64,000 bases of DNA from an uncultured Bacteroidales bacterium (GTDB lineage: Bacteria; Bacteroidota; Bacteroidia; Bacteroidales; UBA932): contig CAMKAJ010000001.1 of the NCBI GenBank assembly GCA_946410455.1, positions 54,336 through 118,335 on the forward strand. The letters run 5' to 3'. A program made the translations under genes and the position numbers. The notes under the pieces are model-generated. The model saw nothing but the letters and a program-made list of their open reading frames with translations. It did not search any database and was not told the origin of the DNA. How positions within the stretch are numbered: position 1 is the first letter of the stretch; the number at the start of each line of letters is the position of its first letter. Shown here piece after piece: positions 3,047-38,838 of the stretch.

Positions 3047-3126
3047 AATTGAAGCAGATTGTTGTTTCTGCTGCAAGTATAGTATAAATCTGGCGATCGC
3101 GAGCGCCCTGAGGGGCGGCGGAATGC

Positions 3127-3165
3127 AGATATTTACGATTCTTTGCAAGATATTTACAATTCTTT
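3127..3165. promoter_or_regulatory. 18-bp direct repeat with 21-bp period upstream of the Rpn gene
   Basis: AGATATTTACGATTCTTT (3127-3144) and AGATATTTACAATTCTTT (3148-3165). Confidence 0.45.
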
Positions 3166-4368: not shown

Positions 4369-6129
4369 CTACCACCCCAGCACGGAGGCTTTGGAGGAGT
4401 AGGCCTCGGCCTCGGTGGCGGTGAGCTGTTTGCCGAGCCTGTTGCGGCTGCCCATTACGGATTTGCCGCTGGCATCTACGCTTCCGTACTCTTTCCAGCC
4501 CGATTCTGCCGTGGGGCCTGTAGGGTTGGGAGAAGGGTTGCTGTACCAGCCTGCAGGTGCAATTGCGGGCGCCATAGTGCAGCCAACATAAGTCACATTA
4601 TCGAAGACCTCTGCCTGTCCGGCGCTGCGGGCAAGGTACATGCTGCCGTCTTTAACTCCTTCTTCTGCGGTGAGCGAGCAGTTCAGGAACACAAATCCTT
4701 TGGCTCCGGCCGAGGGGACGCGGGCTTGTACTATGTATCCGCCGGCGCGGGCGCGAATCTCGCAGTTCTCCAGAAGGCAAGCTGTAGGATATCCCCAGAT
4801 AAAGTCTACATGTCCGGCAATCAGGGAGTTATGCACCCATACCGAGCCCTTGCAAAGGAAGGTGTCTTGCCATGAGATAAGCGAGCAGCGTTCCAGTGTA
4901 AGCTTGTAGTTGGAGTTGAAGTAGATGGTCTCTGCCTGTCCCTTATGAGAGGGGATAGAATAGGTGTTTTCTATCGTAATGTTCTCCAGCACCAGATTGT
5001 CGCAACCTTCGACCAAGAAGACGCAGCGCCCGCCAGACTTACCTATGGCCTTGCCGAGCGTAGGGCGCGAAGACAGAGATGCTCCTGAGCCGGTCTCGTA
5101 GCTGTCGTTGTTGGGATAGGCGATGCGCGTCTTCTCGCGGGATACTCCCTTGATTGTTACGTTGTTGCGATTTCTCATGAAGAGCAGTTCGGGGAAGGTT
5201 CCCTCGCCTACCGATATGGTTACGGGGCTGTCTTTCTGAAGGGTAGAAATGTAGCTGATGGCTCCCTGCACCGTGCAGAAGTCGCCGCTGCCGTCGGCTA
5301 GTATGCTGTATTCCGGACCAGAGGGGGCGGATTTTGTGCTGAATGTGAGCTCCCCGGCTGCTATTGCCTTGCCTGCCACACTTTCGTCGAGCGTTACATA
5401 GTATTTCTGGGAGAAGTCGAGCGCCTCGTTGTGCAGCTTGATTTCCAGCGACTTACCCTTTACTCGTACCGGAGTATAATGCACGGGGCGGTACTGGTTG
5501 CTGTGGAGGGCGTCCATGAAGGTATGATAGAGGTAGTCATTCCCTATGGCAATCTTGCCGGCGTCGGCGTCTGCTCCTGCGGGTACGAGGGTGCCGTCCT
5601 CGAGGGCGGTCATCTGCGACATATCTGCCATGTCTATGCGGTCTACTTCTTTTCCGCTCTCTGTAAACACCTTTATAAGTCCGCTGGTGCCCAGCACGGG
5701 GGCGGAGTCGAAGCTAATCACGATTGGAGCATCTATGCATACGGCATCGGCGCCGTCGGGACCTACAGGTCCGGGAGCCGTTCCCAGGGTGCGGCCCTCA
5801 ATGGTGGCGCTATAAGCAGAAGTCTTTCCTGATCCTTCTGCACATACGCAAAAGCTATATGTAGTGCCCTTCTGGAGATTCTCTATCAGCACAAAACGTT
5901 TAGTCTCGGCTCCTTCCCGTACAGAATTATCTTCTCCCTGCAGTTTCCACAAATAGCGAGTCGCTCCCTCTACTGGAGCCCACTGAAACGTCAGCGAGGT
6001 CTCAGTAGCGTTGTGAAGAACTACGTTCTGGGGGATGTCGATATCTTTCTCTTCCGGATTTACCGGTTTCTCCTGACATCCATAAAGGGCCGCAATGAGA
6101 GCGGCAGCAAAAATCAAAAACTTCTTCAT
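4369..6129 (-). CDS. Lipoprotein pectin methylesterase (CE8) with N-terminal FN3 domain
   Basis: Signal ending LYGC; FN3-like segment; DGSGDFCTVQGAI, QAE, QDT, GHVDFIWG motifs; start at ATG 6129. Confidence 0.8.
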   Translation of the reverse strand: MKKFLIFAAALIAALYGCQEKPVNPEEKDIDIPQNVVLHNATETSLTFQWAPVEGATRYLWKLQGEDNSVREGAETKRFVLIENLQKGTTYSFCVCAEGSGKTSAYSATIEGRTLGTAPGPVGPDGADAVCIDAPIVISFDSAPVLGTSGLIKVFTESGKEVDRIDMADMSQMTALEDGTLVPAGADADAGKIAIGNDYLYHTFMDALHSNQYRPVHYTPVRVKGKSLEIKLHNEALDFSQKYYVTLDESVAGKAIAAGELTFSTKSAPSGPEYSILADGSGDFCTVQGAISYISTLQKDSPVTISVGEGTFPELLFMRNRNNVTIKGVSREKTRIAYPNNDSYETGSGASLSSRPTLGKAIGKSGGRCVFLVEGCDNLVLENITIENTYSIPSHKGQAETIYFNSNYKLTLERCSLISWQDTFLCKGSVWVHNSLIAGHVDFIWGYPTACLLENCEIRARAGGYIVQARVPSAGAKGFVFLNCSLTAEEGVKDGSMYLARSAGQAEVFDNVTYVGCTMAPAIAPAGWYSNPSPNPTGPTAESGWKEYGSVDASGKSVMGSRNRLGKQLTATEAEAYSSKASVLGW

Positions 6130-6141
6130 ACTTTTGTGACT

Positions 6142-6229
6142 GTTGCCGGAGGTACAAGCGGATGGACCTCCGGGCGCAAAAATGGCCCAAAATGCTGCCG
6201 GAGGTACATTCGCGTGTACCTCCGGCAAC
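6142..6229. repeat. Double-hairpin REP/BIME-like intergenic element
   Basis: Outer perfect inverted repeat GTTGCCGGAGGTACA (6142-6156) / TGTACCTCCGGCAAC (6215-6229) enclosing two CCGGAGGT...ACCTCCGG hairpins. Confidence 0.8.
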
Positions 6230-6235
6230 GGTAAA

Positions 6236-7684
6236 CTAAATCTCTACCGGCTTGTACTTAGGCACAAGGGACTTCATGATGATCCAGGCAAGGAGGTAAG
6301 CCAGGCCGCAGAAGCAGAACATGATAAAGTAGCCTGCGGGCTTGCCCTCGAAGCCGAGGAAGTGGAATGCGGCGCCTTGACCTTCTGCGTAGGTAAACAG
6401 GTTACCTGCCACCTTCTGGATAATCATTGAGCCTATACCTCCGGCCATTGCTCCGATTCCAGTAATAGAAGCGATGGTGCTCTTGGGGAACATGTCACCT
6501 ACCGTGGAGAAGATGTTGGCGCTCCAGGCTTGATGTCCAGCACCGGCAAGACCGATGAGTATGGCCGGCCACCAGGGGCTGTAGGCTCCCAGAGGCTGGG
6601 CGGCAAGGGCCACCAGCGGGAAGAAGGCAAAGAGCAGCATGGCCAGCATACGTCCGCTGTAAGGATGCATGCCCTTCTTCTCTACAAAGAGCTTGGGCAA
6701 ATATCCTCCGAAGAGCGAAATCACCGTTACAATAGCGTAGAGCGTGAAAATCAGGCCCTGCCCCAGAGGTGAAGACGCAGGAGCGTTGAACTGGTCCTGG
6801 AAGTAGGCGGGAGCCCAGAACAGGAAGAACCACCACACGCCGTCGGTGAGGAATTTGCCGAAGATGAAGCTCCAGGTCTGCTTGTAGCGGAAGCACTGGA
6901 TGAAGGGGATGGATTTCTCCTCCACCGCCGCATTTTTTACTGTGGCTTCCGCCTCCTCATCCTGCCTGATATACGCCAGCTCCGCTTCGTTCACCCTCTT
7001 GCTCTTCTCTGGCTTGTCGTACATAAACTGCCAGAAGAACATCCAGATGAATCCCAGGCCACCGATGATAATGAAAGCCATCTCCCAGCCGAGGTTTTTG
7101 GCCAGCGGCGGGATGAGCAGGGGAGCGGCCAGGGCGCCTACGGAAGCCCCTGCATTGAAGATTGAGGTGGCGAAGGCACGGTCTTTCTTGGGGAAGTATT
7201 CCGCAGTGGTCTTGATGGCGGCGGGGAAGTTGCCGCTCTCGCCGAGAGCCAGGATGCCCCGGCACAGCAAGAACAGGTACACGCTAACCGTGGATATGGT
7301 CAGGGCAACGTTGGAACCGGCCTCCACCGCCCTCAGTGCATCTACGGAATCTACTCCGTCAACAAACCAGGTGGTGGCGATGCCACAGGCTGCGTGCATC
7401 ACGGCGCCGAGCGACCACACTCCAATGGCAATGAGGTAGCCCTTCTTGGTGCCCATCCAGTCTACGAACTTACCGGCAAAGAGGCAGGCGATGGCGTAGA
7501 AGATAGAGAACAGGGAGGTGATGGTGCCGTAGTCGGCATCGGTCCAGTGGAATTCGGGGGCGATGAACTCCTTGTAGGTCAAGGACAGTACCTGACGGTC
7601 GAGGTAGTTCACAGTGGTGGCTACGAACAGCAGGCTGCATATCCACCAGCGCCAGTTGGTCATTAATTTCTTTGTCGTACTCAT
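6236..7684 (-). CDS. exuT: MFS hexuronate transporter
   Basis: RWWICSLLFVATTVNYLDRQVLS, GESGNFPAAIK, WFFLFWAP; follows uxaB. Confidence 0.85.
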   Translation of the reverse strand: MSTTKKLMTNWRWWICSLLFVATTVNYLDRQVLSLTYKEFIAPEFHWTDADYGTITSLFSIFYAIACLFAGKFVDWMGTKKGYLIAIGVWSLGAVMHAACGIATTWFVDGVDSVDALRAVEAGSNVALTISTVSVYLFLLCRGILALGESGNFPAAIKTTAEYFPKKDRAFATSIFNAGASVGALAAPLLIPPLAKNLGWEMAFIIIGGLGFIWMFFWQFMYDKPEKSKRVNEAELAYIRQDEEAEATVKNAAVEEKSIPFIQCFRYKQTWSFIFGKFLTDGVWWFFLFWAPAYFQDQFNAPASSPLGQGLIFTLYAIVTVISLFGGYLPKLFVEKKGMHPYSGRMLAMLLFAFFPLVALAAQPLGAYSPWWPAILIGLAGAGHQAWSANIFSTVGDMFPKSTIASITGIGAMAGGIGSMIIQKVAGNLFTYAEGQGAAFHFLGFEGKPAGYFIMFCFCGLAYLLAWIIMKSLVPKYKPVEI

Positions 7685-7685
7685 A

Positions 7686-9125
7686 CTACAGGATAGACTT
7701 TACTGCGGCACGCATGCCTTCCTTCTGAATAAGTGCCAGGTCGGCTGCGAGCAGCTCGCACAGGCCGGGAATGGCGTTGAGGTCTTCGCCCCAGATAAAC
7801 TCATCTGCGAGCACTCCGGAGGCCACTTTGCGTACGTCGCCGGTAGCCCAGAGGCCAGAAAGCAGCTCTACAATCTTAGGATCGTCGTTGGGAACAATCT
7901 CGTCCTCGCCGCGCTTGCCGCCCTTGTAGTAGGTGCAGATGCCGGCCAGGCCGAGCACCAGCCCCTTGGGCAGCTCGCCCTTGCGCTCCAGATAGGTCTT
8001 GAGGCCGGGCAGGTCGCGTGTTTTGAACTTGGGGAAGGAATTAAGCATGATGGAAGTCACGAAGTGCTTCACGAAGGGATTGCGGAAGCGCTCCAGCACG
8101 TCGCCGGCGAACTTCAGCAACTCTTCCTCGGGCAGATTCAAAGTAGGCAGGAGCTCGTCGTACATGACCTTGTGCACAAAAGCGCCGATCTCGGGATCCT
8201 CGCAGCACTCCTTCACGGTGTTGAGCCCGCTGAGATAGCCAACGGGGCTGAGCACAGTGTGGGGGCCATTGAGAAGCGTAACCTTCCTCTCGTGATAAGG
8301 GGCCTCAGAGGGCACGAAGAGCACGTTGAGCCCGGCCTTGTCGGCAGGGAACTCGGCTGCAACCTCCTTGGGAGCTTCGATTACCCAGAGATGGAAAATC
8401 TCTGCCTTGTCCAGCAGATTGTCCTGATATCCAGCCCTCTCGCAGAGCTGTGCGGCGGTATCTCGGGGGTAACCGGGGACGATACGGTCTACCAAAGTAG
8501 AATAAACACCGCAAGCCTCTTCAAACCATGCACGGAAGTCCTCAGGGAGCTGCCAGAGCTCGATGTACTGGCGTATGCACTCTTTGAGGTGCTTGCCGTT
8601 CTCGAATATGAGCTCGCAAGGGAAGATGATAAGTCCCTTGTCGGCGGCGCCGCCAAAGTGCTCCCAGCGGTGATACAGCAGCTGGGTGAGCTTGCCGGGG
8701 TAGGAGCTGGCAGGGGCATCGCTGAGCTTGCATGCGGGGTCGAAAGCGATGCCGGCCTCGGTGGTGTTGGAAATCACGAAGCGTATCTCGGGCTGCTCGG
8801 CCAGCGCCAGGTACTCCTGGAACTGGGTGTAAGGGTTGAGACCACGGGAGATTACGTCTATGAGGTCTACGCTGTCTACAGGCTCTCCGTTCAGGAGGCC
8901 CTGGAGGTTGAGGTGATACAGGCCGTCCTGCTCGTTGAGCCACTCTACCATGCCCTTCTCGATGGGCTGGACCACCACCACGGAGCCATTGAAATCTGTC
9001 TTCTGGTTGGTCTTCCAGATAATCCACTCGATGAATGCGCGGAGGAAGTTGCCCTCTCCAAACTGGATTACTTTCTCTGTGTAGCGCTTCGCCTGAGGCG
9101 CGGAAGTACGATTTAATCTTTCCAT
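7686..9125 (-). CDS. uxaB: Tagaturonate reductase (altronate oxidoreductase)
   Basis: QFGEGNFLRAF, SNTTEAGI, PCELI, LVDRIVPG, LLNGPHT; ATG 9125 preferred over TTG 9134. Confidence 0.93.
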   Translation of the reverse strand: MERLNRTSAPQAKRYTEKVIQFGEGNFLRAFIEWIIWKTNQKTDFNGSVVVVQPIEKGMVEWLNEQDGLYHLNLQGLLNGEPVDSVDLIDVISRGLNPYTQFQEYLALAEQPEIRFVISNTTEAGIAFDPACKLSDAPASSYPGKLTQLLYHRWEHFGGAADKGLIIFPCELIFENGKHLKECIRQYIELWQLPEDFRAWFEEACGVYSTLVDRIVPGYPRDTAAQLCERAGYQDNLLDKAEIFHLWVIEAPKEVAAEFPADKAGLNVLFVPSEAPYHERKVTLLNGPHTVLSPVGYLSGLNTVKECCEDPEIGAFVHKVMYDELLPTLNLPEEELLKFAGDVLERFRNPFVKHFVTSIMLNSFPKFKTRDLPGLKTYLERKGELPKGLVLGLAGICTYYKGGKRGEDEIVPNDDPKIVELLSGLWATGDVRKVASGVLADEFIWGEDLNAIPGLCELLAADLALIQKEGMRAAVKSIL

Positions 9126-9136
9126 ATTGTCCAATG

Positions 9137-12100
9137 TTATTCAGTTTCTTTAACGATAACCAGCAACAAAGCTTGCTCGCTGTTGCCCTGCGCAATGGTG
9201 TATGCGGTGCCCTTCTCGAGGTTCAGCACCCCGGAGTCTCCGATTTCTGAGTAGGGGGTATCAAAGGTTATTGCATCGCCGCCCGCCGGAGTGATTTTTA
9301 TTTTGGCGGTGCTTGCGCTTTCCTTCCTGCGGATAAACCAGAACTGCACGGTAGAGTTCACGGATGCCGAAGTGGTGAAACTCAGTGAGCCGCCGCTGTT
9401 GAGCTTGAGGCCTTTCTTGGATGAGTAATCCCCAATGGTCCATTCGCTGATGGCGTAGTCGCCTCCCAGGTCGGTCTTGGCTGTAGCGGTGAAGTAGCTG
9501 CCTGCAACTCCGTCTGTGAGGTTCACGGCGGCGTTGCTGGAATCGTAATAGAACACATGGGTGCGTGCTCCTGAAGGATCATCGCCGGGCTGATCGGGAT
9601 CGTCGGGATCGTCAACATCGGGGTTGGTGGGATCGTCGTCGGTGCCGTTGTAATCGCTGATACCTCCGTTGTTCACGGCCACAGGAGCCTCCGTCCAGCC
9701 GAGCTTGCCGTAGCCTGCGTTAGCCTTTACCAGTTCGGGCAGGTCAGCCACCGGAGTCACGGTATAAGCATAAGAAGGCTGGAAGTCGGCGTAGGTGAGA
9801 GGAGTCGCGAGCTTCTCTCCGTTGTACTTCTTGTACTCTACGTTGCTCAGCGGATACGGGTCGCGCGCCTTTGAAGGGCGGTTCATGTAGATATTGCCGG
9901 CGGGGTAGAGATAACCGGCCACGGAACCCTGAAGGTTAGACACGTCACCATCCTTTGCAGGATAGGTGCAGATGTCGGTAGGCAGCTGCACTCCGTCGAA
10001 GTAATTGTATTCTACGAGTACCTTTGCGCCGTATGCGGAACCGGCTCCATAAGTGGTGCAGCCGTCGTAGATGTTGTTGTACACGTGGGCGGTGCCAAAA
10101 CGCACGCGCGGGTGTCGCGAGCTGGAGCCGTCGAACCAGTTGTGATGGAAGGTTGCGGTAATCGCGGCGTCGGCGCTGGCGCTGTTGGAGTGCCCCACGA
10201 GGCAGCTCTTCTGCGTCTTGATATAGCGGCACCAGCTCACGGTAACGTTCTTGCTGGCGTGGGTAATGTCTGTGCTGCCGTCCTCGTAGTCCTTGGTCTG
10301 GTTGAGGGAGGTGAAGGAGCAGTGGTCCACCCACACGCCGTCACACTCCTGCATGCTCACTGCGTCGGCGCCGTTGTTGGCCTTGGGCTGCTGGAAGTTG
10401 ATGTTGCGGATGATAATGTTGCTGGCTCTCACGCAGAAGATGCCTATGCGGTCCATCACGAAGCCGTCGGTGCCGTAGAAGCTGAGGTTGCTTACATCCT
10501 TCACGTCGAACCAGGGGTGGGCTTCAGAGAAGTCGCGTCCATCCTCGGGACCGAAAGTGCCGCTGAGCCATATGGTTACGGGGCTGTGATCGCCCTTCTT
10601 CTCGCTCTTGGTGCGGGCGAGCAGCCAGGTCTGGAGGGCCTTGCCGCTGTTGAAGTGCAGCACGTGGTCGGAGTCTGCTGCGTCACCGCCGGTAACATTA
10701 GCAGCGGCCGCGAAGCCTATCATGGCTGTAGCATCTACGCTGCCTTCCGTGGGCTTAAGATTCTCGGGAATCTCCAGATCGGCGCCCTCGGCAGGCTGGT
10801 CGGGCTGATCGGGATCTTCAGGCTGGTCGGGGTCGTCGGGAGTGACGCTGCCGCTGGTCTCGAATACGAGCTTGTAGAAGCGCAGACCGTTGCCGGACGC
10901 ATACACAGTAACGGTTCCGGCCTTCACGTTGAACTCCCTGGTCTCGAGGTTCCCGTACAGAACTACCTCGCTGGTCACCGTATTCTGTGCGTCCTTGACG
11001 CTTACGGTACGGGTGGAGGATTCGTTCTCCGTGTCCTTGGGATTCCTTACGGATACTGAAAGCTTGCCATCAGCAGGAGCGGTGAAGGTGAAGTAGCGGG
11101 TGCTGGTAGAGCCGGCTCCGTTAGACTGGATATACCCGTCAACGGACCATTTGTCGTCCTTGCCAGCGGCGTAGGAGAGGCCGCCGTATGCGACGCCCCA
11201 GTTGCTCGCCTTGGTGTCCTTGGCTGCCGGAGCCTGTGCCTCCAGGGCTGCCTGCCACTCTGCGGTGGAGAAGTCCCAGGTAAGGGAAGTGACCTCGGAT
11301 TTCTTGCTCACGTCGCCATCGGCGATGTTGAAGGTGAGGGTGGGGATCACGCCGGACTGCAGGGCCACGGGTGCGCTCAGAGTCACAGTCCTGGCAACCA
11401 GGAGGTCATCATCGTCGGTCACAACCTCGGCCGTGAGAGTGCTCCCGGCCGCAAGTGTTACGGGGTTCACGATGACGAAGGCGCCGTTCTTGCCGTCGGC
11501 CGCCCAGTCGTCGCCCTCGTATGCGGCAGTCACGTAGTTGTAGCTTACCTTACTGTCCCAGCCGGTGATTTCTGCAGTCTCGATGTTCACGAGCACGCGT
11601 CCGGTAAGGGTCCCGGTGGAAGACCTGAGCGTAACGCTCTTGATCTTCTTGCCGGCGAGTTTGGACTCATTGGTGGCATCGGCGACGACCACCTTGGCAA
11701 CTGCCAGCACGCGGTTGAAGTGGAGCGTGCCTGCGCTCGCAAGGGCTGCATCTGCAACGGTAACGCTGCAGGCGTCGGAAACCAGAAGGTCGCAGGAAGG
11801 ATCGAAGGTGCTGAGGGAAGGGACGTTCTGCACTGCAGGCAGGGCGAACTTGAATGTCGTCTCTGCGCGACCGTCCTTCATATCTTTGGGATAATAGGCA
11901 TAGATGGTGTGCGTGCCGTCGGTGATTTCGAGATTGCCGGAGAAGGAACCGGTCGTGCCGTCTTCTAAGGTGTTCACGAAACTCTTCTGGGCGGTGTAGT
12001 CGCCATCTACCTTGTAGGTTACGTTCATAGCGTCGCCTTTCTGCCATTTGGGCTGCCAGCCGCCTTCCGCAGCTTCTATGAAGGTGCGGGTGCCGGGCAG

Positions 12101-12229
12101 GTCTGCAGTAAGGGTTACACTGATTTCGTGTACTCCGGAGGGAGTTGCTTTTTCCGCCTGCTCCTTAAGCTGGCAGGCGCTGGTCGCCATTGCGGCGATT
12201 CCGAGAATGGAAACAAGTATCTTTTTCAT
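9137..12229 (-). CDS. Multimodular lipoprotein: fimbrillin-like N-terminus, putative CBM, PL1 pectate lyase, C-terminal putative CBM
   Basis: TSAC lipobox; GTRT..W..GD and YAYYP fimbrillin motifs; PL1 motifs NIIIRN, VWVDH, DGSTD, RHPRVRFG; Pro/Asp linkers. Confidence 0.85.
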   Translation of the reverse strand: MKKILVSILGIAAMATSACQLKEQAEKATPSGVHEISVTLTADLPGTRTFIEAAEGGWQPKWQKGDAMNVTYKVDGDYTAQKSFVNTLEDGTTGSFSGNLEITDGTHTIYAYYPKDMKDGRAETTFKFALPAVQNVPSLSTFDPSCDLLVSDACSVTVADAALASAGTLHFNRVLAVAKVVVADATNESKLAGKKIKSVTLRSSTGTLTGRVLVNIETAEITGWDSKVSYNYVTAAYEGDDWAADGKNGAFVIVNPVTLAAGSTLTAEVVTDDDDLLVARTVTLSAPVALQSGVIPTLTFNIADGDVSKKSEVTSLTWDFSTAEWQAALEAQAPAAKDTKASNWGVAYGGLSYAAGKDDKWSVDGYIQSNGAGSTSTRYFTFTAPADGKLSVSVRNPKDTENESSTRTVSVKDAQNTVTSEVVLYGNLETREFNVKAGTVTVYASGNGLRFYKLVFETSGSVTPDDPDQPEDPDQPDQPAEGADLEIPENLKPTEGSVDATAMIGFAAAANVTGGDAADSDHVLHFNSGKALQTWLLARTKSEKKGDHSPVTIWLSGTFGPEDGRDFSEAHPWFDVKDVSNLSFYGTDGFVMDRIGIFCVRASNIIIRNINFQQPKANNGADAVSMQECDGVWVDHCSFTSLNQTKDYEDGSTDITHASKNVTVSWCRYIKTQKSCLVGHSNSASADAAITATFHHNWFDGSSSRHPRVRFGTAHVYNNIYDGCTTYGAGSAYGAKVLVEYNYFDGVQLPTDICTYPAKDGDVSNLQGSVAGYLYPAGNIYMNRPSKARDPYPLSNVEYKKYNGEKLATPLTYADFQPSYAYTVTPVADLPELVKANAGYGKLGWTEAPVAVNNGGISDYNGTDDDPTNPDVDDPDDPDQPGDDPSGARTHVFYYDSSNAAVNLTDGVAGSYFTATAKTDLGGDYAISEWTIGDYSSKKGLKLNSGGSLSFTTSASVNSTVQFWFIRRKESASTAKIKITPAGGDAITFDTPYSEIGDSGVLNLEKGTAYTIAQGNSEQALLLVIVKETE

Positions 12230-12241
12230 CGCTGCAATGGT

Positions 12242-12379
12242 TTAGAAAGTGAAATCGTCGCCGTCGCCGAGGAAGCCGCCGGCACCGTCGTCAACAAGGT
12301 TACTGTCTGCGAGAAGTCCCGCAAGTTCCCACTGCGAGTCTGACTCGCAGGTGGGAGATATGTAGCTGTGTTTAATCAT
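12242..12379 (-). CDS. Unannotated 45-aa YxxP-family small ORF (sORF1)
   Basis: MIKHSYISPTCESDSQWELAGLLADSNLVDDGAGGFLGDGDDFTF*; fills the gap between two genes (2 bp and 12 bp spacing). Confidence 0.7.
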   Translation of the reverse strand: MIKHSYISPTCESDSQWELAGLLADSNLVDDGAGGFLGDGDDFTF

Positions 12380-12381
12380 TG

Positions 12382-13989
12382 TCAATTGCTTGATTCGACG
12401 AGTTTTACAAGTACAAGGGCAAGTTCCTTATTATCCCTTACGATGGTATATGTAGTGCCCTTCTCAAGTGCTATGTCAGTCTGTGATGATACCGTCCCGT
12501 AAGTGTTGAAATTGCCATATACTACGGCAGTACCGCCTTCGGGGGTCAGCTTTATTCGAGCTCCGGAGTTGTCGCCGGATTTTCTGGCTACGTAATAGAA
12601 TGTTAACTTAGAGTTCAGGGTAGAGGAGGTTGTGAAAGAAACAGATCCGCTTCCGTTGAACTTCAATCCCTTGGTTATTGTTAACGACTCTACAGTAAAT
12701 GAATCAGCACCGCAACCGCTGCTGTCGGAGGCAGAGAAAGATACAAGTCCGTTTTTGAGAGTACCTGTAAACTTGTCATTGGTATTGGTCTCTGTGCCGT
12801 CGCTGTTTATGTAATAAAAATAAGTAGTAGCGGACGTTCCGCCTCCCGCACTGGCCTGAGAGACAACCACATTCTTAGTTACGGTCTTGTCTGTGTCGTA
12901 GGTGTAGGTGAGTGTTACGTAGGCATACTTGACACTTGATTCGGTATTAGCCGAGCAGGTGAAGGGAATGCTTCCGTCTGCTATTTCTCCAAGTGCAAAG
13001 TTACTAATGGTATTAACCTTACCATCTGTTGTAGCTGCGCTGAGCACGCCACCGGTAACGCTATTCGCAATTGAATACTCAATCTTTCCGCTGGTGTCGT
13101 CCTTCTTGATATCAACGCCGTTTGCCGTTATCACGGGAGCTGGGGTGATCACTGGAGGACATCCAAGATCGTAAACATAGCCTACAGAAGGGATCAAATT
13201 CTTTACTGCATCAACGGTAGTTGTTACAGGCTTATCTACTCCATTGTGGGTGTAGGTTATGGTTATACCGTTGAGTTTCTGACTGTTAGCTACTCGGGGA
13301 ATAGCGCAGAAATAGTAGTATGAACCCTTTTTGAAGGAGCCCGCTACAGAGCCCATGTCATTGCTTCCGCTGTTGTTTGCGGTGATACTGCCGTTCTCTG
13401 CAGAATAGGCAGGTCTCTTCTGGAAAGCGTTGCTGGTGGCTGCAATCCTAACCTTGGTGATACCGTCATCGGGAATCTGAATCCTGAAATAGCTCACGCC
13501 ATGCCTGAAAACAAACTTTCCTCCGCTAACGGTAGCAGTCATAATGGCGTGTGCGGGATCGTATCCGTTTTCTACAACTGCCTGGGAGGTATAAGTACTG
13601 ATGTTGGAGGCTATTTCTATTGTTGCAGGCAATGAGGATGTTTTGAGTGCATAGCCGGAAGGATAAATGGCCACGTAGCTATCATATGTCCCGAAACTCT
13701 CTCCTTCCTTGAGCGTGAATGTGCCGTTTTTGGTACCGGCTCCGGCGCTGAGCTCAAATACTGCCTTTGCAGCATAAGCATTGTCGGTGCATCCGTAAAC
13801 GTCTATTTTATCACCTGCAGACCAAAGAACGTTGAAGTCTGTATCTATGCTTGTTTTGGTGATGTCCGGCATAGTTGCTTCAAAAGACATTCTCTGCTCA
13901 GGTACAACAGAGATTTCTATCTGCTTTTGGCAGGAAACGATGCTTGCAATAAATGCAATTGCGCTGAAAATAAAACTTGTTCTTTTCAT
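12382..13989 (-). CDS. Fimbrillin-like lipoprotein with BACON-like and C-terminal putative CBM domains
   Basis: Start set at MKRTSF (13989), VSC lipobox; ITKT..W..GDKIDV and YVAIYP; C-terminus homologous to that of the PL1 gene. Confidence 0.75.
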   Translation of the reverse strand: MKRTSFIFSAIAFIASIVSCQKQIEISVVPEQRMSFEATMPDITKTSIDTDFNVLWSAGDKIDVYGCTDNAYAAKAVFELSAGAGTKNGTFTLKEGESFGTYDSYVAIYPSGYALKTSSLPATIEIASNISTYTSQAVVENGYDPAHAIMTATVSGGKFVFRHGVSYFRIQIPDDGITKVRIAATSNAFQKRPAYSAENGSITANNSGSNDMGSVAGSFKKGSYYYFCAIPRVANSQKLNGITITYTHNGVDKPVTTTVDAVKNLIPSVGYVYDLGCPPVITPAPVITANGVDIKKDDTSGKIEYSIANSVTGGVLSAATTDGKVNTISNFALGEIADGSIPFTCSANTESSVKYAYVTLTYTYDTDKTVTKNVVVSQASAGGGTSATTYFYYINSDGTETNTNDKFTGTLKNGLVSFSASDSSGCGADSFTVESLTITKGLKFNGSGSVSFTTSSTLNSKLTFYYVARKSGDNSGARIKLTPEGGTAVVYGNFNTYGTVSSQTDIALEKGTTYTIVRDNKELALVLVKLVESSN

Positions 13990-14002
13990 GATCTTCTCCT
14001 CC

Positions 14003-14146
14003 CTAATTACTCCATATATCTCCAAGGTCTTGATAAGTAAGACCGTCAAGAGACTCAGCACCTGTTCCACTTTCAGCAAGGAAGCACCAGGCGTTTACTA
14101 CTTCCTCCAGTTCTGCCACCGGGGCAGAGTAAATAATTTTCTTCAT
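14003..14146 (-). CDS. Unannotated 47-aa YxxP-family small ORF (sORF2)
   Basis: MKKIIYSAPVAELEEVVNAWCFLAESGTGAESLDGLTYQDLGDIWSN*; 9 bp after the uxaA stop, 13 bp before the next start. Confidence 0.75.
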   Translation of the reverse strand: MKKIIYSAPVAELEEVVNAWCFLAESGTGAESLDGLTYQDLGDIWSN

Positions 14147-14155
14147 TTCAATTTG

Positions 14156-15634
14156 TTACAGCGTCACGCCGCTCTTGAAGATGGCGATTTCGCGGTAGTT
14201 GTGTTTCTCGTTGTTAACCGGCTCTCCCGAGGCGGCGGCCAGTACGGCCTCTATGAATCGCGGGGCTACCTCTGCCATGGTCTGGTCTTGGGCCAGTACC
14301 CCTGCGTTAAAGTCGATCCATCCGCCCTTGAGTTCGTAGAGCGGGGTGTTGGTAGATATCTTCATGGTGGGCACGAAGCTCCCGAAGGGGGTGCCCCGGC
14401 CTGTAGTGAAGAGCACAATCTGGCAGCCGGCTGCCGCAAGGGCGGTGCTGGCTACAAGGTCGTTGCCGGGGGCGCTCAGCAGGTTGAGACCTTTGACTGA
14501 GAGCCTCTCGCCGTATTTAAGTACGCCGCGCACCGTGCTCTTGCCGCACTTCTGCGTGCATCCGAGGCTCTTTTCTTCCAGCGTAGAGATGCCTCCCGCC
14601 TTGTTGCCCGGCGAGGGATTCTCGTACACCGGCATGCCCTGGGCCATGAAGTACTCCTTGAAGTCGTTGATAAGGGCGACGGTCTTGTCGAATGTAGCCT
14701 CGTCCTGGCAGCGGTTCATGAGTATAGTCTCGGCTCCGAACATTTCGGGTACTTCGGTGAGTACGGTGGTGCCTCCCTGGGCCACGATCCAGTCTGAGAA
14801 TACGCCCAGCAGGGGATTGGCGGTGATGCCGCTAAGTCCGTCGGAGCCGCCGCACTTAAGGCCAACGCGAAGCTCGCTCACGGGCACCTCGGTGCGTTTG
14901 TCCTGGGAGCATACGGCGTAAATCTCGCGTAGCTTCTGCAGTCCGAATTCAACTTCGTTCTCTACCTGCTGGCAGGTGAACATCTTCACGCGTGTCTCGT
15001 CCACGGGGCCCACCAGCTCGCGGAATGCATCCAGCTGGTTGTTCTCGCATCCAAGGCTCACCACCAGCACGCCTCCGGCATTGGGATGATGTACCATGTC
15101 GGCAAGGACGGTGCGGGTGTTCTGGTGGTCGCCTCCCAGCTGCGAGCAGCCGTAATTGTGTGGGAATGCGACGATTGCGTCGATGGAGGATGTGCGTCCG
15201 GCGATCTCTTCTTTGAAGCGGCGGACTATCTCTTCGCACACTCCGTTTACGCAGCCCACGGTGGGGATGACCCAGATCTGGTTGCGTATGCCCACCTGGC
15301 CGTCTGCGCGCTTGAATCCAAGGAAGCTGCGGCGCGTTGCAGAAGGCTCGATATCGGTGAGCGCCGGATTGTACTTATACTCCAGCAGTCCCTCCAGGTT
15401 GGTTTTGATGCACGAATGATCCACCATGGTGCCGGCAGCAGCATCGTGCGTAACGTGACCGATAGGGTAGCCGTACTTTATTACATTGTCTCCGGCCTTG
15501 AGGTCGCGCAGCACCACTTTGTGGCCCCGGGGCACATCCATGGAGAGCTCTAAGCCCTCCACGGATTCGCCCTTGGCCAGGTCTGTCAACGCAACGGCCA
15601 CATTATCGTCGGGATTAATCTTGATGTATTTCAT
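14156..15634 (-). CDS. uxaA: Altronate dehydratase
   Basis: SAF domain (DNVAVAL, GHK), PTVGC, HNYGCSQLG, CGGSD, FTTGRGTP. Confidence 0.93.
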   Translation of the reverse strand: MKYIKINPDDNVAVALTDLAKGESVEGLELSMDVPRGHKVVLRDLKAGDNVIKYGYPIGHVTHDAAAGTMVDHSCIKTNLEGLLEYKYNPALTDIEPSATRRSFLGFKRADGQVGIRNQIWVIPTVGCVNGVCEEIVRRFKEEIAGRTSSIDAIVAFPHNYGCSQLGGDHQNTRTVLADMVHHPNAGGVLVVSLGCENNQLDAFRELVGPVDETRVKMFTCQQVENEVEFGLQKLREIYAVCSQDKRTEVPVSELRVGLKCGGSDGLSGITANPLLGVFSDWIVAQGGTTVLTEVPEMFGAETILMNRCQDEATFDKTVALINDFKEYFMAQGMPVYENPSPGNKAGGISTLEEKSLGCTQKCGKSTVRGVLKYGERLSVKGLNLLSAPGNDLVASTALAAAGCQIVLFTTGRGTPFGSFVPTMKISTNTPLYELKGGWIDFNAGVLAQDQTMAEVAPRFIEAVLAAASGEPVNNEKHNYREIAIFKSGVTL

Positions 15635-17049
15635 CAGAAATTAAAGTAATTCTTTGCGTTGTTGTAGCAAATGTCTTCTACCATCTGGCCGATGAAGGGG
15701 AGCTCGCTGGCGGGCAGCTTGCCTTGCTCGATGTCGGAGCCCAGCACGTCGCAGAGGATGCGGCGGAAGTACTCGTGACGAGGGTAGCTGATGAAGCTGC
15801 GGCTGTCTGTGAGCATACCCACGAAGCGGCTCAGAAGACCGAGTACGCTAAGGGCGTCGAGCTGGCGGCGCATTCCGACCTCCTGGTCCAGGAACCACCA
15901 GCCGCTGCCGAACTGCATCTTGCCGGGCACGGTGCCGTCGTTGAAGGTGTAGAGCATGGTCATCATCACCTCGTTGTCCTTGGGATTGAGGCAATAGAGT
16001 ATGGTCTTGGCCAATTTGTCTTCGCGGGTAAGACGGTCGAAGAAGCGGTGGCCAGCAGCAGCAATCTCCTGGTCGTGAATGGCGTCGAAACCTGTATCGG
16101 CACCAACGAGACCGAACATCTTGCTGTTGTTGTTGCGAATGGCTCCGATGTGGAACTGCTGGGCCCAGCCGGCCTCGGCATCCATGACTGCCTGATCGTG
16201 CAGGAAAGCGCTGCGGAACTTCTCAAGATCCTTGGGACCGGGTGCAATACCCATGAGCACCTTCTTGAAGATGAGCTCTATTTCCAGCTCGGTGTAGTCG
16301 GCTGCGTAGAAGTTCTCCAGACCATGGTCGGAGAGCTTGCAACCATTGGCTGCAAAGTAATCGTGCCTCTTCTTCAGAGCCTCCACGAGGTCGGCGTAGG
16401 AGTCGATTTCCTTGTCTGCGGCCTCTCCGAGCTGCTTGAGGTATGCCTTGTAAGCCTTGGGATCCTCGATGGCCATGGCCTTGTCGGGCCTCCATGCGGG
16501 AATAACCTTGGTCCCGAAAGGATGCTCGGCAATCATCTTGTGCCAGCGAAGGTCGTCTGCCGGATCGTCGGTAGTACAAACTACTTCAACCCCGAACTTG
16601 CGGATGAGAGCCTGTCCGCGGAACTCGGGAGTTGCAAGTTTAGCGTTGCACTCCTCAAAAATCTCGCGGGCGGTAGCGGGGCTCAGGAGCTTGTCTATGC
16701 CGAATACCCTGCTGAGCTCTAGATGAGTCCAGTGGTAAAGAGGGTTGCGCATAGTATAAGGCACGGTCTCGGCCCACTTGCGGAAGGTCTCCCAGGAGTC
16801 GTACTTGCCTCCGGTGAGGTAATCCTCGGACACGCCGTTGGCGCGCATTGCACGCCACTTGTAGTGGTCGCCGTAGTGCCCGTCTACCAGCCAGAGCTGG
16901 GTAATGTCGCGGAACTGGATGTTTTCTGCTATCTGCTGCGGTACAAGGTGGCAGTGATAGTCTATGATGGGCATCTTTGCTGCATGCTCGTGATACAGCC
17001 GGCGGGCTGTATCACTTTGCAGCATAAAGTTATCGTTGATAAAAGACAT
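15634..17049 (-). CDS. uxaC: Glucuronate (uronate) isomerase
   Basis: IIDYHCHL, DHYKWRAMR, WWFLDQ, GMLTDSRSF. Confidence 0.95.
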   Translation of the reverse strand: MSFINDNFMLQSDTARRLYHEHAAKMPIIDYHCHLVPQQIAENIQFRDITQLWLVDGHYGDHYKWRAMRANGVSEDYLTGGKYDSWETFRKWAETVPYTMRNPLYHWTHLELSRVFGIDKLLSPATAREIFEECNAKLATPEFRGQALIRKFGVEVVCTTDDPADDLRWHKMIAEHPFGTKVIPAWRPDKAMAIEDPKAYKAYLKQLGEAADKEIDSYADLVEALKKRHDYFAANGCKLSDHGLENFYAADYTELEIELIFKKVLMGIAPGPKDLEKFRSAFLHDQAVMDAEAGWAQQFHIGAIRNNNSKMFGLVGADTGFDAIHDQEIAAAGHRFFDRLTREDKLAKTILYCLNPKDNEVMMTMLYTFNDGTVPGKMQFGSGWWFLDQEVGMRRQLDALSVLGLLSRFVGMLTDSRSFISYPRHEYFRRILCDVLGSDIEQGKLPASELPFIGQMVEDICYNNAKNYFNF

Positions 17050-17050
17050 A

Positions 17051-20000
17051 TTACTTGCTGTGGAATTCTATCTTGAGGAAACGGAGTCCGTTGCCGGTAG
17101 GATAAATCTTTACTGCGCCGGCATCGATATCAAACTCACAAACCGCAGGAGCGGTGGAGGGTACGCCTCCGGCTATGCTCTGGGGCTCACCGTCGTTTAC
17201 GCTCACAGTAACCATGCGGGTAAGGTCTTCGCTGCTACCGGTGTTGGATGCGGTGACGCTGAGCTTGCCTGCACTATTGGCCGTGAAGCTGAAGAAGCGG
17301 TCGCTGCCGTCGCTCTTGCCGCCAGCCTGGATGTAGTACACAGTCTCCTCGTTGATGGTGGCGGTGTTCCACTTGCTCTTCTGGGTAGATGTCCAGGTGA
17401 GTCCGTCAACGGTTGATACCCAGTTGGTTATGTCTGCACCCTTGGCACCCTTTGCTGCAAGCTCGGTCTGCCAGGCCTCGCTGGAGAAGTCCCACACGTA
17501 GTCTTCCTTTGCAATGGGCGGCTGTCCGCCACCGCTGGTAGTCTCCAGATAAGTGAATTCTATCTTGAGGAAGCGCAGACCGTTGCCGGTAGGATAAATC
17601 TTAACTGCACCAGCCTCGATTTCGAACTCGCACACGGTAGGAGCGGTGGAGGGAGCACCTCCTGCAACGCTCTGGGGCTCACCGCCGTTTACGCTTACGG
17701 TAACCATGCGGGTAAGATCCTCGCTGCTTCCGGTGTTGGAGGCAGTTACGCGGAGCTGTCCGGCTGCAGGAGCGGTGAATCTGAAGAAACGGTCGCTGCC
17801 GTCGCTCTTGCCGCCAGCCTGGATGTAGTACACAGTCTCCTCGTTGATGGTGGCGGTGTTCCACTTACTCTTCTGGGTAGATGTCCAGGTGAGTCCGTCA
17901 ACGGAAGATTCCCAGTTGGTTATGTCTGCACCCTTGGCACCCTTGGATGCAAGCTCGGCCTGCCAGTCCTCGCTGGAGAAGTCCCAGGTGAGAGTCTTCT
18001 CTACCGTTACCTCGCCGCCGCCAGCAGGGGCCATAACTGCGAAAGCTACGGTAGCTGCCTCGGATGCGGTGTTGTAGGTGTCGGCTGCGTCGGGGTTTGC
18101 AACCACGGAGACGGTATAGACGCCAGCGGCAAGTGCTGCGGCAGTCTCGGCGTCGATCACGAAGCTGAGCTCCTCGGTGGTGGTCTTCTTCTTGTTGAAG
18201 GTCACGGTGTAGTTTGCAGCGTTTGCAACTGCGCCCCAGCTTACGCTGATCGGGGTCTCGTCGCCCTCGGTGATGCTCTCTACGTCGATTGCGAGCTTGG
18301 GAGCTGCAAGAGCAGTGTTGACTCCTGCAACATCTGCAGACCATGCGAGTGCGGTAATCTTGGATGCTCCGGTAGGATAGAGATACACGAGGCTCTCTTC
18401 GCTGATGCCGGTAAGCACAACCTTCTGAGGGTCTCCGTTGGCATTGGCCACGGCGCCGCCCTTTACGGTAGCTGCACCGCCGTCGGCGTCACCCACGGCA
18501 ACCACTATCTGGCAGCCGTCGGCATCGGGATCCTCCATCTTAATTACCACGGAGCCGTTTTCTGCGGCCTTGAATGCCACGTAGCCGTCGGTAGGTACGC
18601 CCTTCTTGTTCACTGCAGCTGCAGCATTGAAGGAGATTGCGCCGTCGAGATTCATCTTGCGCTCCTCGGAAGCCACGAAGAGCAGGCCGTCGCGCACTTT
18701 GCTCTTCTCCAGGTCGCCTGCAAACAGGGTAGCGTCGCCCAGGTTCCAAACGTGAGGAGCAGCAGTAACGGCCAGGGTGAGGTCTTCTACCGGCTCCACA
18801 TAAGCGTTCCACCATTTTGCAGCACCGACTTGCTTATCCTGAAGGTCGGCGTTGGACAGATGGAAGTTGTTGCCCTTTGCGTTGAAGCAAGGATCGTCTG
18901 CCAGCACCGTAGCGCCTATCTGCGCAGCGGTGAAGTTCTTGCTCTCGCCGAAGAACTTCTCGCCTATAGCGTAGCAGTAGTTGTTGCTGCCGCTTACGTT
19001 GGCAGGGGCGTTTTCGGGGAGGTTGGTGGTTGCCAGCACGGCCTTCTCGCCCTGCTGATACAGGAAGAGATTGTTCTTTGCGCTAAGCGAAGTCCAGGGG
19101 CAACGGATGTAGAGAATGCCCTTGTCGGGGATAGCCACGTTCTTGATGGTGTTGTTCTCCATCACGAAGGCGTTCAGAGAGGTGCTCTTGTCGTCGATAC
19201 GGAAGAACGAACGGAATGCATCGTAAACCGTATTGTTGCGGAAGGTGATGGTGCCGATGGCTGCTGCGTTACGTACGTCAACGCCGTCGCCGCCGCTTCC
19301 GGGGATGTTGTAGATATCGCATCCCTCGATGAGCAGCTCGCCGAGAGTCAGCTGGTCGGCCACGTTGTCGTAGAAGATACCGCAGTTGTAACCGGTAATC
19401 TCGCAGTTGACGAGGCTGATCTTCTCTATGTTGAGCTCTCCGCCCTTATGGTCGATGATACGGCTGCGGGCGGTGCCGTCGAAGTGGATATTCTCAATGT
19501 GCAGGTCTCCGGTGTAACCGACGTTAAGCACTATGTCGCCCTGTACAACGGGACGGCTGCCGTCTGCGGCGTATTCGCCGAGCATGCGGAATCCCTTGGC
19601 TGGAGTCACGCTGCCAACCACGTAAGGGGAGCCCTCGGCGCCCACGTACACGTCGTCACCTGCTGTCATTGCAGCTATGAGAGCCTCGGAAGTAGTAACT
19701 CTGGACAGCGAACCCTGTGCGGGAGCGGTCCATACGGTCACGGCGCCACGGCTTGCGCTCTTGAAGAAGAGCACGATGTCGTACTCGGCAGAAGGAGCCA
19801 GCCCGCCGATAACGGCTGCCGCCGCCTCTGCCTCGGTTGCGTTGAGCTCTTTGCTCACTGCTGCACCACCGGCAACAGGAGTTGCCTCGATATGGGTAAC
19901 GTCCCTGTAATCAGAAGCATCCTTAGACCAGGTGAGAGATACAGACTCGGCGCTCTTGGCTGCAACTACCAGGAAGAGGTTGTCCTTTACGGCGTATGTC

Positions 20001-20380
20001 TTGAAGCTGCCGTCGTATTCGGCCACTTTAGAATCCTGCAGCTTGGATGATTTTGCGGTAACGCGGAAGGTGTAGGTCCGGTCAGCCTCCAGCTCGTCGG
20101 TCACGAAGGGGACTTCTTTTCCGACAAGCGTTTTGGTGAGGACGGCCTCGCTGGTCTTGGCGTCGAGAACCTCCAGGAGGTATTCTTCGGCGTCGGTAGT
20201 TACATCCCAACGGAAGGTTGTGAGAACGCCGCTGTTGGCATCTACCTTTGCCGACAGGTTCATAGGCTCGAGGCAGCGCTTCAGCGGAACTGAGGTGATT
20301 TCCTCGAACACTTTGTCCTGCAAGCAGGAAACCGCGAACAGGGCGGTAAGTGCCAGAAGGATATATTTAATCTTATTCAT
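17051..20380 (-). CDS. Surface glycan-binding lipoprotein (FN3, beta-helix, DUF4957/DUF5123-like) with a duplicated C-terminal module
   Basis: VSC lipobox; directly after susD; two near-identical ~147-aa modules offset by 492 bp. Confidence 0.75.
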   Translation of the reverse strand: MNKIKYILLALTALFAVSCLQDKVFEEITSVPLKRCLEPMNLSAKVDANSGVLTTFRWDVTTDAEEYLLEVLDAKTSEAVLTKTLVGKEVPFVTDELEADRTYTFRVTAKSSKLQDSKVAEYDGSFKTYAVKDNLFLVVAAKSAESVSLTWSKDASDYRDVTHIEATPVAGGAAVSKELNATEAEAAAAVIGGLAPSAEYDIVLFFKSASRGAVTVWTAPAQGSLSRVTTSEALIAAMTAGDDVYVGAEGSPYVVGSVTPAKGFRMLGEYAADGSRPVVQGDIVLNVGYTGDLHIENIHFDGTARSRIIDHKGGELNIEKISLVNCEITGYNCGIFYDNVADQLTLGELLIEGCDIYNIPGSGGDGVDVRNAAAIGTITFRNNTVYDAFRSFFRIDDKSTSLNAFVMENNTIKNVAIPDKGILYIRCPWTSLSAKNNLFLYQQGEKAVLATTNLPENAPANVSGSNNYCYAIGEKFFGESKNFTAAQIGATVLADDPCFNAKGNNFHLSNADLQDKQVGAAKWWNAYVEPVEDLTLAVTAAPHVWNLGDATLFAGDLEKSKVRDGLLFVASEERKMNLDGAISFNAAAAVNKKGVPTDGYVAFKAAENGSVVIKMEDPDADGCQIVVAVGDADGGAATVKGGAVANANGDPQKVVLTGISEESLVYLYPTGASKITALAWSADVAGVNTALAAPKLAIDVESITEGDETPISVSWGAVANAANYTVTFNKKKTTTEELSFVIDAETAAALAAGVYTVSVVANPDAADTYNTASEAATVAFAVMAPAGGGEVTVEKTLTWDFSSEDWQAELASKGAKGADITNWESSVDGLTWTSTQKSKWNTATINEETVYYIQAGGKSDGSDRFFRFTAPAAGQLRVTASNTGSSEDLTRMVTVSVNGGEPQSVAGGAPSTAPTVCEFEIEAGAVKIYPTGNGLRFLKIEFTYLETTSGGGQPPIAKEDYVWDFSSEAWQTELAAKGAKGADITNWVSTVDGLTWTSTQKSKWNTATINEETVYYIQAGGKSDGSDRFFSFTANSAGKLSVTASNTGSSEDLTRMVTVSVNDGEPQSIAGGVPSTAPAVCEFDIDAGAVKIYPTGNGLRFLKIEFHSK

Positions 20381-22220: not shown

Positions 22221-22232
22221 CTTCGGTAGCGT

Positions 22233-25490: not shown

Positions 25491-25530
25491 TAGTTTTGAT
25501 GATTAATTAATAGATTAGTGTGAGTATCAT

Positions 25531-30373: not shown

Positions 30374-30388
30374 GGTGTTCTTTTATGG

Positions 30389-30482
30389 GATTTCTCCACT
30401 TCGCTTCGCTTCGGTCGAAATGACCTCATCTGTCATTTCGAACGGAGTCGCCATCTGTCATTTCGAGCGGAGTTGAGAAATC
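30389..30482. repeat. REP-like palindromic element (GTCATTTCGA family)
   Basis: GATTTCTC...TCGAAATGAC (30389-30424) can pair with GTCATTTCGA at 30432 or 30457 and with GAGAAATC (30475-30482). Confidence 0.8.
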
Positions 30483-32140: not shown

Positions 32141-32198
32141 TGGTTATTCGTCTAGTGTGCGGGCGGTTTTTGTCTTATTATTATATTACCGACCGCTG

Positions 32199-32280
32199 CA
32201 AAGATACAATAATTTTTTAATTCCGTGCACGGTAACGGAAAAAATTTCGTGCACGGGCACGGAAATTTTTTCTATATTTG
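32199..32280. promoter_or_regulatory. Divergent promoters with two CGTGCACG palindromic operators
   Basis: Minus TATCTTTG (32199-32206); CCGTGCACGG (32223-32232); CGTGCACG (32248-32255); plus TATATTTG (32273-32280). Confidence 0.75.
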
Positions 32281-32294
32281 CAAAAAGCAAGTAT

Positions 32295-38693: not shown

Positions 38694-38709
38694 AATGCAG
38701 TCCTCCTTT

Positions 38710-38838
38710 TTACCAAGAAAAATCACTAATGAGTTCATAATCCTCTGTGGTTGCAGAGTCGCTCTCACAGAGCATGTCCAGATAAGACATAGGCAGCAAG
38801 TCTATATCCGGGCTTACATAACGTTGTTCTTTTTTCAT
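38710..38838 (-). CDS. Unannotated 42-aa YxxP-family small ORF (sORF3)
   Basis: MKKEQRYVSPDIDLLPMSYLDMLCESDSATTEDYELISDFSW*; A-rich initiation region; first gene after a promoter-like element. Confidence 0.8.
   Translation of the reverse strand: MKKEQRYVSPDIDLLPMSYLDMLCESDSATTEDYELISDFSW

Follow-up and report, generated by a model that had tools for sequence, protein, structure and literature searches.

Architecture of six lipoprotein genes

We analyzed a stretch of 64,000 nucleotides (nt), hereafter the window, from contig CAMKAJ010000001.1 (assembly GCA_946410455.1) of an uncultured Bacteroidales bacterium (UBA932). Six of its genes, here called A to F, encode lipoproteins that share an N-terminal domain (the N-domain) and differ in the enzymatic or binding modules behind it. 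All six are open reading frames on the minus strand, with true starts at positions 12229 (A), 13989 (B), 36768 (C), 38693 (D), 41441 (E, a GTG codon), and 43257 (F). Each product has a signal peptide with a lipobox cysteine (TSAC, IVSC, ASSC, AISC, ATSC, and TYAC, from A to F), followed by charged residues (QLKEQAEK, QKQIE, VKDQETE, NKNDIE, QKEGSPEPD, and VEKPQPEPE), a stretch that is no more than suggestive of export to the cell surface and association with SusCD. A first-pass annotation of this DNA had proposed six lipoproteins with a lipobox, a common N-domain, and different cargo, and the reading frames, signal peptides, and alignment bear this out.

Gene A (9137..12229) encodes a lipoprotein of 1030 amino acids (aa) with the lipobox cysteine at Cys19. 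Its fimbrillin-like N-domain (11315..12172, aa 20-305) contains a TR-T site at R48 (12086-12088) and the motif WQKGDAM (from 12046), followed by YAYYP. Behind it lie a putative carbohydrate-binding module (CBM; 10820..11314, aa 306-470), a pectate lyase region of polysaccharide lyase family 1 (PL1; 9650..10792), and a C-terminal CBM77-like module (sub-threshold; 9140..9592, aa 880-1030) that is homologous to the C-terminus of B. The PL1 region matched Pectate_lyase_4 (aa 586-744, E 3.9e-33), and both PL1 motifs, vWVDH and RxPxxR (RHPRVR), were found. Gene B (12382..13989) encodes a lipoprotein of 535 aa consisting of the N-domain (13150-13929), a BACON-like domain (12835-13149), and a CBM77-like module (sub-threshold; 12385-12834), and its product is likely a pectin-binding surface protein.

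The products of the other four genes carry a glycoside hydrolase (GH) domain or lectin-like heads. Gene C (34168..36768) encodes an 866-aa lipoprotein in which the N-domain (35938-36699) is followed by a connector with a FISUMP/C-lectin-like head (34894-35937) and, at the protein end, by a beta-propeller with a Phytase-like/NHL match (34171-34893). Gene D (36783..38693; 636-aa lipoprotein) comprises the N-domain (37839-38630) and a connector with a FISUMP head (36786-37838). In gene E (39516..41441; 641-aa lipoprotein), the N-domain (40614-41381) precedes a GH18 domain (39570-40541, E 1.5e-49) with an intact DGVDLDWE motif. Gene F (41449..43257; 602-aa lipoprotein) encodes a PE-repeat linker, an N-domain without a T-K/R loop (42460-43200), and a connector with a FISUMP head (41452-42459). 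The Fib_succ_major (FISUMP) matches in C, D, and F were all sub-threshold. The cargo proposed earlier was recovered as PL1, GH18, propeller, and CBM-like modules, except that C has the DRNLGA/FISUMP region besides its propeller.

Conservation and distribution of the N-domain

The N-terminal 260-300 aa of the six proteins could be aligned, and five columns of this alignment (W, D, A, Y, and P) are invariant. The N-domain of E shared 63% identity with that of C, 37-39% with D, about 33% with F, and 19-22% with A and B. The predicted motif W-x-x-[GN]-D-x-[IM] was present in all six proteins, whereas the predicted Y-A-x-Y-P held in five, B reading V-A-I-Y-P. When six-frame translations were searched for W..[GN]D.[IM] followed by A.YP within 20-90 residues, this two-motif pattern occurred six times in the window, once per protein, compared with a mean of 0.02 in 50 codon shuffles.

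Word-indexed homologue searches yielded 3 and 8 matches, fragments for the most part. An exhaustive search of 1.84 billion representative proteins with a profile of the six domains was far richer, giving 5390 proteins (E <= 1e-3), of which 668 reached 1e-10 or below and 137 reached 1e-30 or below. Among the best 150 of the 5390 matches, which were listed and classified, the domain was nearly always located at about aa 20-320 of proteins of 600-1200 aa; most of these combined the N-domain with a connector/FISUMP head, and others carried GH18, a propeller, a head plus propeller plus GH18, or PL1 (P0014 and P0140, both A-type relatives). The cargo of further relatives included GDSL esterase, calcineurin-like phosphoesterase, peptidase M60, pullulanase X25 domains, and DUF4874/DUF4832. 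In NCBI records, relatives are named "hypothetical protein" or "glycoside hydrolase family 18".

Related loci were collected with flanks of 8-10 kb from genomes (75 loci) and metagenomes (6 loci; 81 in total), the genome-scan loci being gathered with sequences closer than the six-paralogue alignment. All but one of the 75 genome loci (74) belonged to uncultured Bacteroidales-type metagenome-assembled genomes (MAGs), from ruminant guts where the source was stated, and several were labelled Candidatus Cryptobacteroides. Because relatives carry many different cargo domains, a family-wide role of the N-domain as a modular carrier, placed N-terminally to enzymes and binding heads, is strongly supported by these sequences, in agreement with the modular anchor for enzymes proposed at first. 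In our literature search, no paper was found that describes pilin-fold domains on enzymes of polysaccharide utilization loci (PULs). The nearest reports concerned Mfa_like_1 fused to His-Me nucleases (PMC5714182) and tip adhesins diversified by diversity-generating retroelements (DGRs; 10.1101/2024.11.15.621889).

Relationship to type V pilins

The N-domain was unmatched in full-length Pfam and NCBIfam scans of the six window proteins, which contained no relevant NCBIfam family. When the N-domain of A was scanned alone, it matched the Pfam family PF13149 (Mfa_like_1) with E 7.8e-8 (3.5e-8 on a second scan) and 33.1 bits against a cut-off of 27, over model positions 7-233 of 246. The A domain therefore resembles Mfa_like_1 proteins above the family threshold and over nearly the whole model. 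The isolated N-domains of B to F gave no direct Pfam match, and 85 of the 86 C-F type N-domains tested matched no Pfam family; unlike Mfa_like_1 proteins, the C-F type is tied to this family by profile-profile comparison and fold alone. Among the relatives, P0009 has a precomputed PF13149 assignment. Independently built A-type, B-type (including P0009), and C-F type alignments were compared using hhalign, which linked the C-F type with the B type (probability 97.5%, E 6e-12, 215 aligned columns), the A type with the B type (96.7%, E 5e-10, 161 columns), and the C-F type with the A type (60%, E 9e-5, 215 columns).

The AlphaFold2 (AF2) model of the E N-domain, built on 108 sequences, was all-beta with two sandwiches (mean predicted local distance difference test, pLDDT, 92.6; predicted TM score, pTM, 0.87). 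The first strand was predicted at residues 16-23 in this model and at residues 19-26 in the F model. Foldseek searches of the Protein Data Bank (PDB) with the E model returned Bacteroides "putative cell adhesion/fimbrial" structures with probabilities of 0.91-1.0, namely 3ufi (E 1.2e-6, TMq 0.44), 3up6, 4dgu, 3pay, 3gf8, and 4eps. These entries reportedly come from the type V pilin structure set of Xu et al. 2016. Sequence searches of the PDB with one domain, a 6-sequence profile, and an 86-sequence profile found nothing meaningful. The AF2 model of full mature F (pLDDT 95.4) gave generic multi-immunoglobulin (Ig) matches in Foldseek for the most part, which neither tie it to tip pilins nor separate it from them.

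Based on the Mfa_like_1 match of A, the hhalign links, the predicted fold, and the basic residue described below, we place the shared N-domain in the type V pilin (FimA/Mfa, fimbrillin-like) superfamily, as one of its divergent members. The pilin-like character suggested by the first-pass annotation was thus upheld both by the hidden Markov model search, directly for A and through hhalign for B to F, and by the predicted double beta-sandwich, whose Foldseek matches to the pilin superfamily are supportive, not specific.

The conserved residues could instead mark the N-domain itself as a ligand-binding or docking module, with W..GD.I and YAxYP as a surface that binds a glycan or SusC/SusD. Consistent with this, W and D are invariant and K, Y, and P nearly so across very diverged relatives, and the assembly of PUL lipoproteins on SusCD is well established. 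However, the conserved motif residues lie in or beside the predicted core strands of the E model, as determinants of the fold would. In addition, the cargo serves unrelated substrates (pectin, N-glycan, starch-binding X25, and peptidase M60), and a single glycan ligand is therefore disfavoured. We regard a docking role of this kind as improbable.

The basic residue after the anchor strand

The export form of type V pilins is a lipoprotein. A protease cleaves the loop that follows its anchor strand, and this lipidated strand then gives way to the donor strand of the following subunit (PMC13655056; PMC12632263). In 95 of 108 diverse relatives of the N-domain (88%), K or R follows the first strand (Lys in 82 and Arg in 13), and TRT is invariant among the A-type relatives P0001, P0002, P0003, and P0008. 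In the E model, the basic residue is located in the sole low-confidence stretch (residues 28-30), and the loop that holds it is presumably flexible. A second conserved Lys (GKxxW), three residues ahead of the invariant Trp, was also found in 95 of the 108 relatives.

A basic motif had been proposed for all six window proteins. The T-K/R site was found in A to E, but the Lys of "AEKS" in F aligns with the GKxxW Lys of the C-F group and not with the T-K/R site. F and most of its orthologues have no such site, and in the F model the segment that follows the anchor strand is well ordered (pLDDT 96-97). As the alignment and the model indicate, the canonical cleavage loop is no longer present in the F subfamily. 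In F-type N-domains (window 42460-43200; related loci L007, L016, and L023-L046), a very short loop or an acidic insert, e.g., EEGEEAPAALK, stands in its place, and of the two conserved basic positions the Lys ahead of the invariant Trp is the one retained.

The K/R site might also act as a release switch, by which a cut by a surface protease loosens the lipid tether so that the enzymes and lectins, rather than building pili, leave for the medium or for vesicles. The conserved basic residue in an exposed loop and the lack of a detected partner pilin nearby would fit such a switch, and vesicles are a common destination of Bacteroides surface lipoproteins (PMC12632263). However, cleavage of Mfa1 does not detach its anchor strand, which is lost only upon displacement by a donor strand (PMC13655056), and cleavage alone should therefore not free the protein. 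Shedding by this route seems highly improbable.

Genomic context

Genes A and B belong to a pectin/galacturonan PUL (4369..32140, minus strand). This locus comprises, in order, an fn3-CE8 lipoprotein (CE, carbohydrate esterase), an MFS transporter, a mannitol-dehydrogenase-family enzyme (UxaB-like), A, B, UxaA, and UxaC, and then an fn3-DUF4957-DUF5123 lipoprotein, SusD, SusC, an fn3 lipoprotein, a GH88-type enzyme (Glyco_hydro_88), a GDSL-CE8 esterase, and GH28. The metagenome contigs L076 and L077 repeat the locus with SusC, SusD, fn3-DUF4957, UxaC, UxaA, a B-like gene, A, UxaB, MFS, and CE8, and the A/B pair is conserved inside the pectin PUL.

The module at aa 306-470 of A, of about 150 aa and with weak PPC/DUF5077 matches, recurs at 48-57% identity in the fn3-DUF4957-DUF5123 lipoprotein (17051-20380), where its copies form tandem C-terminal repeats (aa 798-943 and 957-1109). 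It is also homologous to the C-termini of B orthologues elsewhere. This module is probably a not yet classified pectin-binding CBM. A 626-aa lipoprotein of the same PUL (25531-27411, minus strand) has an N-terminal fn3 domain followed by about 500 residues without another Pfam match, and could represent a pectin-active enzyme or binding protein of an unclassified kind.

Genes C to F belong to an N-glycan-like PUL (34168-63678, minus strand), which contains ROK, GH2-alkaline phosphatase, GH20, GH18, SusC, SusD, SusC, SusD, two BACON lipoproteins, F, E, D, and C. The assignment of this second locus to the N-glycan type is inferred from its enzyme families, which form a typical set. The genes between F and the far end of the locus, all on the minus strand, encode the BACON lipoproteins (43276-44805 and 44822-46321), SusD (46337-48022), SusC (48036-50765), SusD (50773-52671), SusC (52684-55848), GH18 (55882-57114), GH20 (57111-59261), the GH2-alkaline phosphatase fusion (59258-62848), and a ROK kinase (62854-63678). 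The gap between E and D is about 820 nt (38694-39515), compared with 8-15 nt for F-E and D-C, and C and D may form a separate transcription unit. The second SusC (48036-50765, 909 aa) has no N-terminal CarboxypepD_reg-like domain, whereas the other two SusC proteins have one.

The fusion protein of 1196 aa (59258-62848, minus strand) joins a GH2 of the beta-mannosidase/exo-glucosaminidase type to an alkaline phosphatase domain. In related PULs, a stand-alone alkaline phosphatase adjoins N-domain-propeller genes (L058:9403-10551). Because alkaline phosphatase occurs both fused to GH2 and beside these genes, there are hints that the loci act on phosphorylated glycans. Additionally, a LacI-family regulator is encoded on the plus strand at about 32316-33347, between the two PULs; the reading frame 31575-33347 is over-extended, and aa 248-562 alone match. 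Close to the left end of the window (2150-3148, minus strand) is a gene resembling PD-(D/E)XK family transposases (PDDEXK_2, E 2.7e-37).

All six genes have the same orientation as the adjoining SusC/SusD genes, with conserved synteny, as expected of PUL lipoproteins. The order SusC-SusD-BACON-BACON-F-type is kept in about 40 of the 75 genome loci, usually with GH18 genes close by. Genes of a second subfamily, N-domain plus propeller (about 525 aa), lie downstream of a different SusC/SusD pair, a few genes away from it and beside DUF4874/DUF4832 and alkaline phosphatase genes. The cargo also fits the locus in which it is found: PL1 and CBM77-like modules occur among CE8, GH28, GH88-type, and UxaABC genes, and GH18 occurs among GH20, GH2, and ROK genes.

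In many related loci (L018:9770-12907; also L017, L025, L030, and L034), the F-type gene is followed by one for a DUF4988 coiled-coil lipoprotein that bears one or two connector/FISUMP heads. A GH18-head-propeller protein without an N-domain was found in L013. As judged from these domain architectures, FISUMP heads have been exchanged between stalks of the pilin-like and the coiled-coil kind.

Comparison with pilus tip subunits

In type V pili, the tip subunits have no donor strand, and the stalk and anchor genes normally share one operon (PMC13655056; PMC12632263). Tip adhesins of Bacteroides consist of a pilin N-terminal domain, a connector, and a C-lectin head, and their genes come right after the anchor and stalk genes (10.1101/2024.11.15.621889). 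Among DGR targets, the Fib_succ_major family is assigned to a C-lectin-type group that is weak and mixed (PMC5758913). The products of A to F resemble the Bacteroides tip adhesins (BovFim1C/4EPS and the DGR-diversified BfrT, BthT, and BunT) in the lipoprotein precursor, the double beta-sandwich N-part, the missing donor strand, the basic residue after the anchor strand, and the C-terminal head, which in C, D, and F is a connector with a C-lectin-type (FISUMP) domain.

No C-terminal donor strand was found in A to F; the N-domain leads straight into the cargo, and the last module of each protein is of the GH18, FISUMP, propeller, or CBM-like kind. They could therefore be tip subunits at most. 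As true type V tip pilins, they would be cut at R/K, and the donor strand of a pilin encoded elsewhere would displace the anchor strand, which would put PL1, GH18, and lectin heads on the tips of short pili. In favour of this possibility, the N-domain belongs to the pilin superfamily, T-K/R occurs in a flexible loop in most relatives and is invariant as TRT in the A type, and the donor strand is absent as in tip pilins (PMC13655056). The three-part plan likewise matches that of BfrT and BthT, with cleavage of BfrT at R43 (10.1101/2024.11.15.621889).

Nevertheless, known tip adhesin genes directly follow anchor and stalk genes, and neither a stalk nor an anchor gene was detected in the window or the 81 loci, as scanned; such neighbours would be expected of a functional pilus subunit. 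The window and these loci likewise contained no other N-domain-related or pilin-sized gene, the FimA and Mfa2 families not having been scanned across the flanks. The two BACON lipoproteins upstream of F were considered as hidden pilin partners and ruled out by an hhalign probability below 4% against the N-domain. Unlike the tip adhesins, which stand at the end of an anchor-stalk operon and have been shown to be cleaved, A to F lie in SusC/SusD loci without a detected pilin partner; some of them bear enzymes (PL1 and GH18), Lys is favoured over Arg, and F has no site.

Pilus assembly is disfavoured by this fixed membership in SusC/SusD operons, the lack of a detected partner, the loss of the T-K/R site in the F subfamily, and heads that are interchangeable with those of non-pilin stalks. 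We consider it unlikely, though deserving of serious weight, that A to F are tip pilins. That rumen Bacteroidales in general carry PL1, GH18, esterases, an M60 peptidase, and lectin heads at the tips of short type V pili likewise seems unlikely. The display on pili proposed in the first-pass annotation is thus unsupported by the available evidence, in view of the PUL loci, the undetected partner gene, the missing donor strand, the lost F loop, and the heads on non-pilin stalks, and nothing was found in support of its analogy to a cellulosome.

A probable pilin-derived pedestal of PUL surface proteins

With moderate confidence, we favour the explanation that the N-domain is a lipid-anchored pedestal of PUL surface proteins and not part of a pilus. 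The lipidated cysteine and a short linker would be followed by a double beta-sandwich module of 260-290 aa, which would serve as a membrane-proximal pedestal and hold the head off the outer membrane, beside the SusC/SusD transporter. The head would be catalytic (PL1 or GH18) or glycan-binding (CBM-like, C-lectin/FISUMP, or propeller). We infer that the six proteins are surface-exposed and stay monomeric and lipid-anchored, possibly docked on SusCD, and that the N-domain has no pilus partner.

Ig-like, fn3, BACON, and DUF1735 domains act as spacers in other PUL lipoproteins. Three other lipoproteins of the window's pectin PUL begin with an fn3 domain, and this N-terminal use of fn3 by close neighbours counts in favour of a pedestal. 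BT3987 reportedly combines DUF1735 with GH18, and Pfam holds a BT_3987-like_N model. As in PUL enzymes and surface glycan-binding proteins (SGBPs) with beta-sandwich spacers, such as BT3987 and SGBP-B of the B. ovatus mixed-linkage glucan utilization locus (MLGUL), the products of A to F are lipoproteins encoded beside SusC/SusD in which an N-terminal non-catalytic beta-sandwich precedes a substrate-matched head. The full F model matched the tandem-Ig SGBP-B of B. ovatus (6e57) at E 4e-4. Unlike the spacers of BT3987 and SGBP-B, however, the spacer in the window is pilin-derived, has two sandwiches, and keeps the anchor-strand and basic-loop signature of pilins.

Several points weigh against a pedestal. 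The conserved K/R in a low-confidence loop resembles a retained protease site, for which a passive spacer has no obvious need. Tip pilins likewise have no donor strand and bear C-terminal heads, in a plan very like that of C, D, and F, and stalk and anchor genes could be located elsewhere in the genome. Additionally, Gram-positive two-domain pilins reached Foldseek E-values equal to those of the Bacteroides pilins at a TM of about 0.2, and the fold match is therefore not specific.

Because known tip adhesins combine a pilin N-terminal domain, a connector, and a C-lectin head, C, D, and F look by analogy like tip adhesins relocated into PULs, and A and E resemble this carrier with the lectin heads replaced by enzymes. 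Known precedents in the type V pilin superfamily share with A to F large extra domains or genes outside the fim/mfa operons; unlike A to F, they are not reported to carry a carbohydrate-active enzyme or to belong to a PUL.

Implications

The N-domain defines a large and currently unannotated family (5390 representative proteins) whose close relatives are called hypothetical in NCBI, and in ruminant-gut Bacteroidales it is the standard module at the N-terminus of many surface enzymes and binders encoded by PULs. Its recognition improves the annotation of rumen MAGs. The relationship described here shows the recruitment of a pilus subunit fold into the machinery of glycan harvesting. Cleavage at the retained R/K would decide between a simple pedestal and enzyme-tipped pili. 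The latter, if true, would represent a new mode of enzyme display in Bacteroidota, with strand exchange as a means of projecting PUL enzymes away from the cell.

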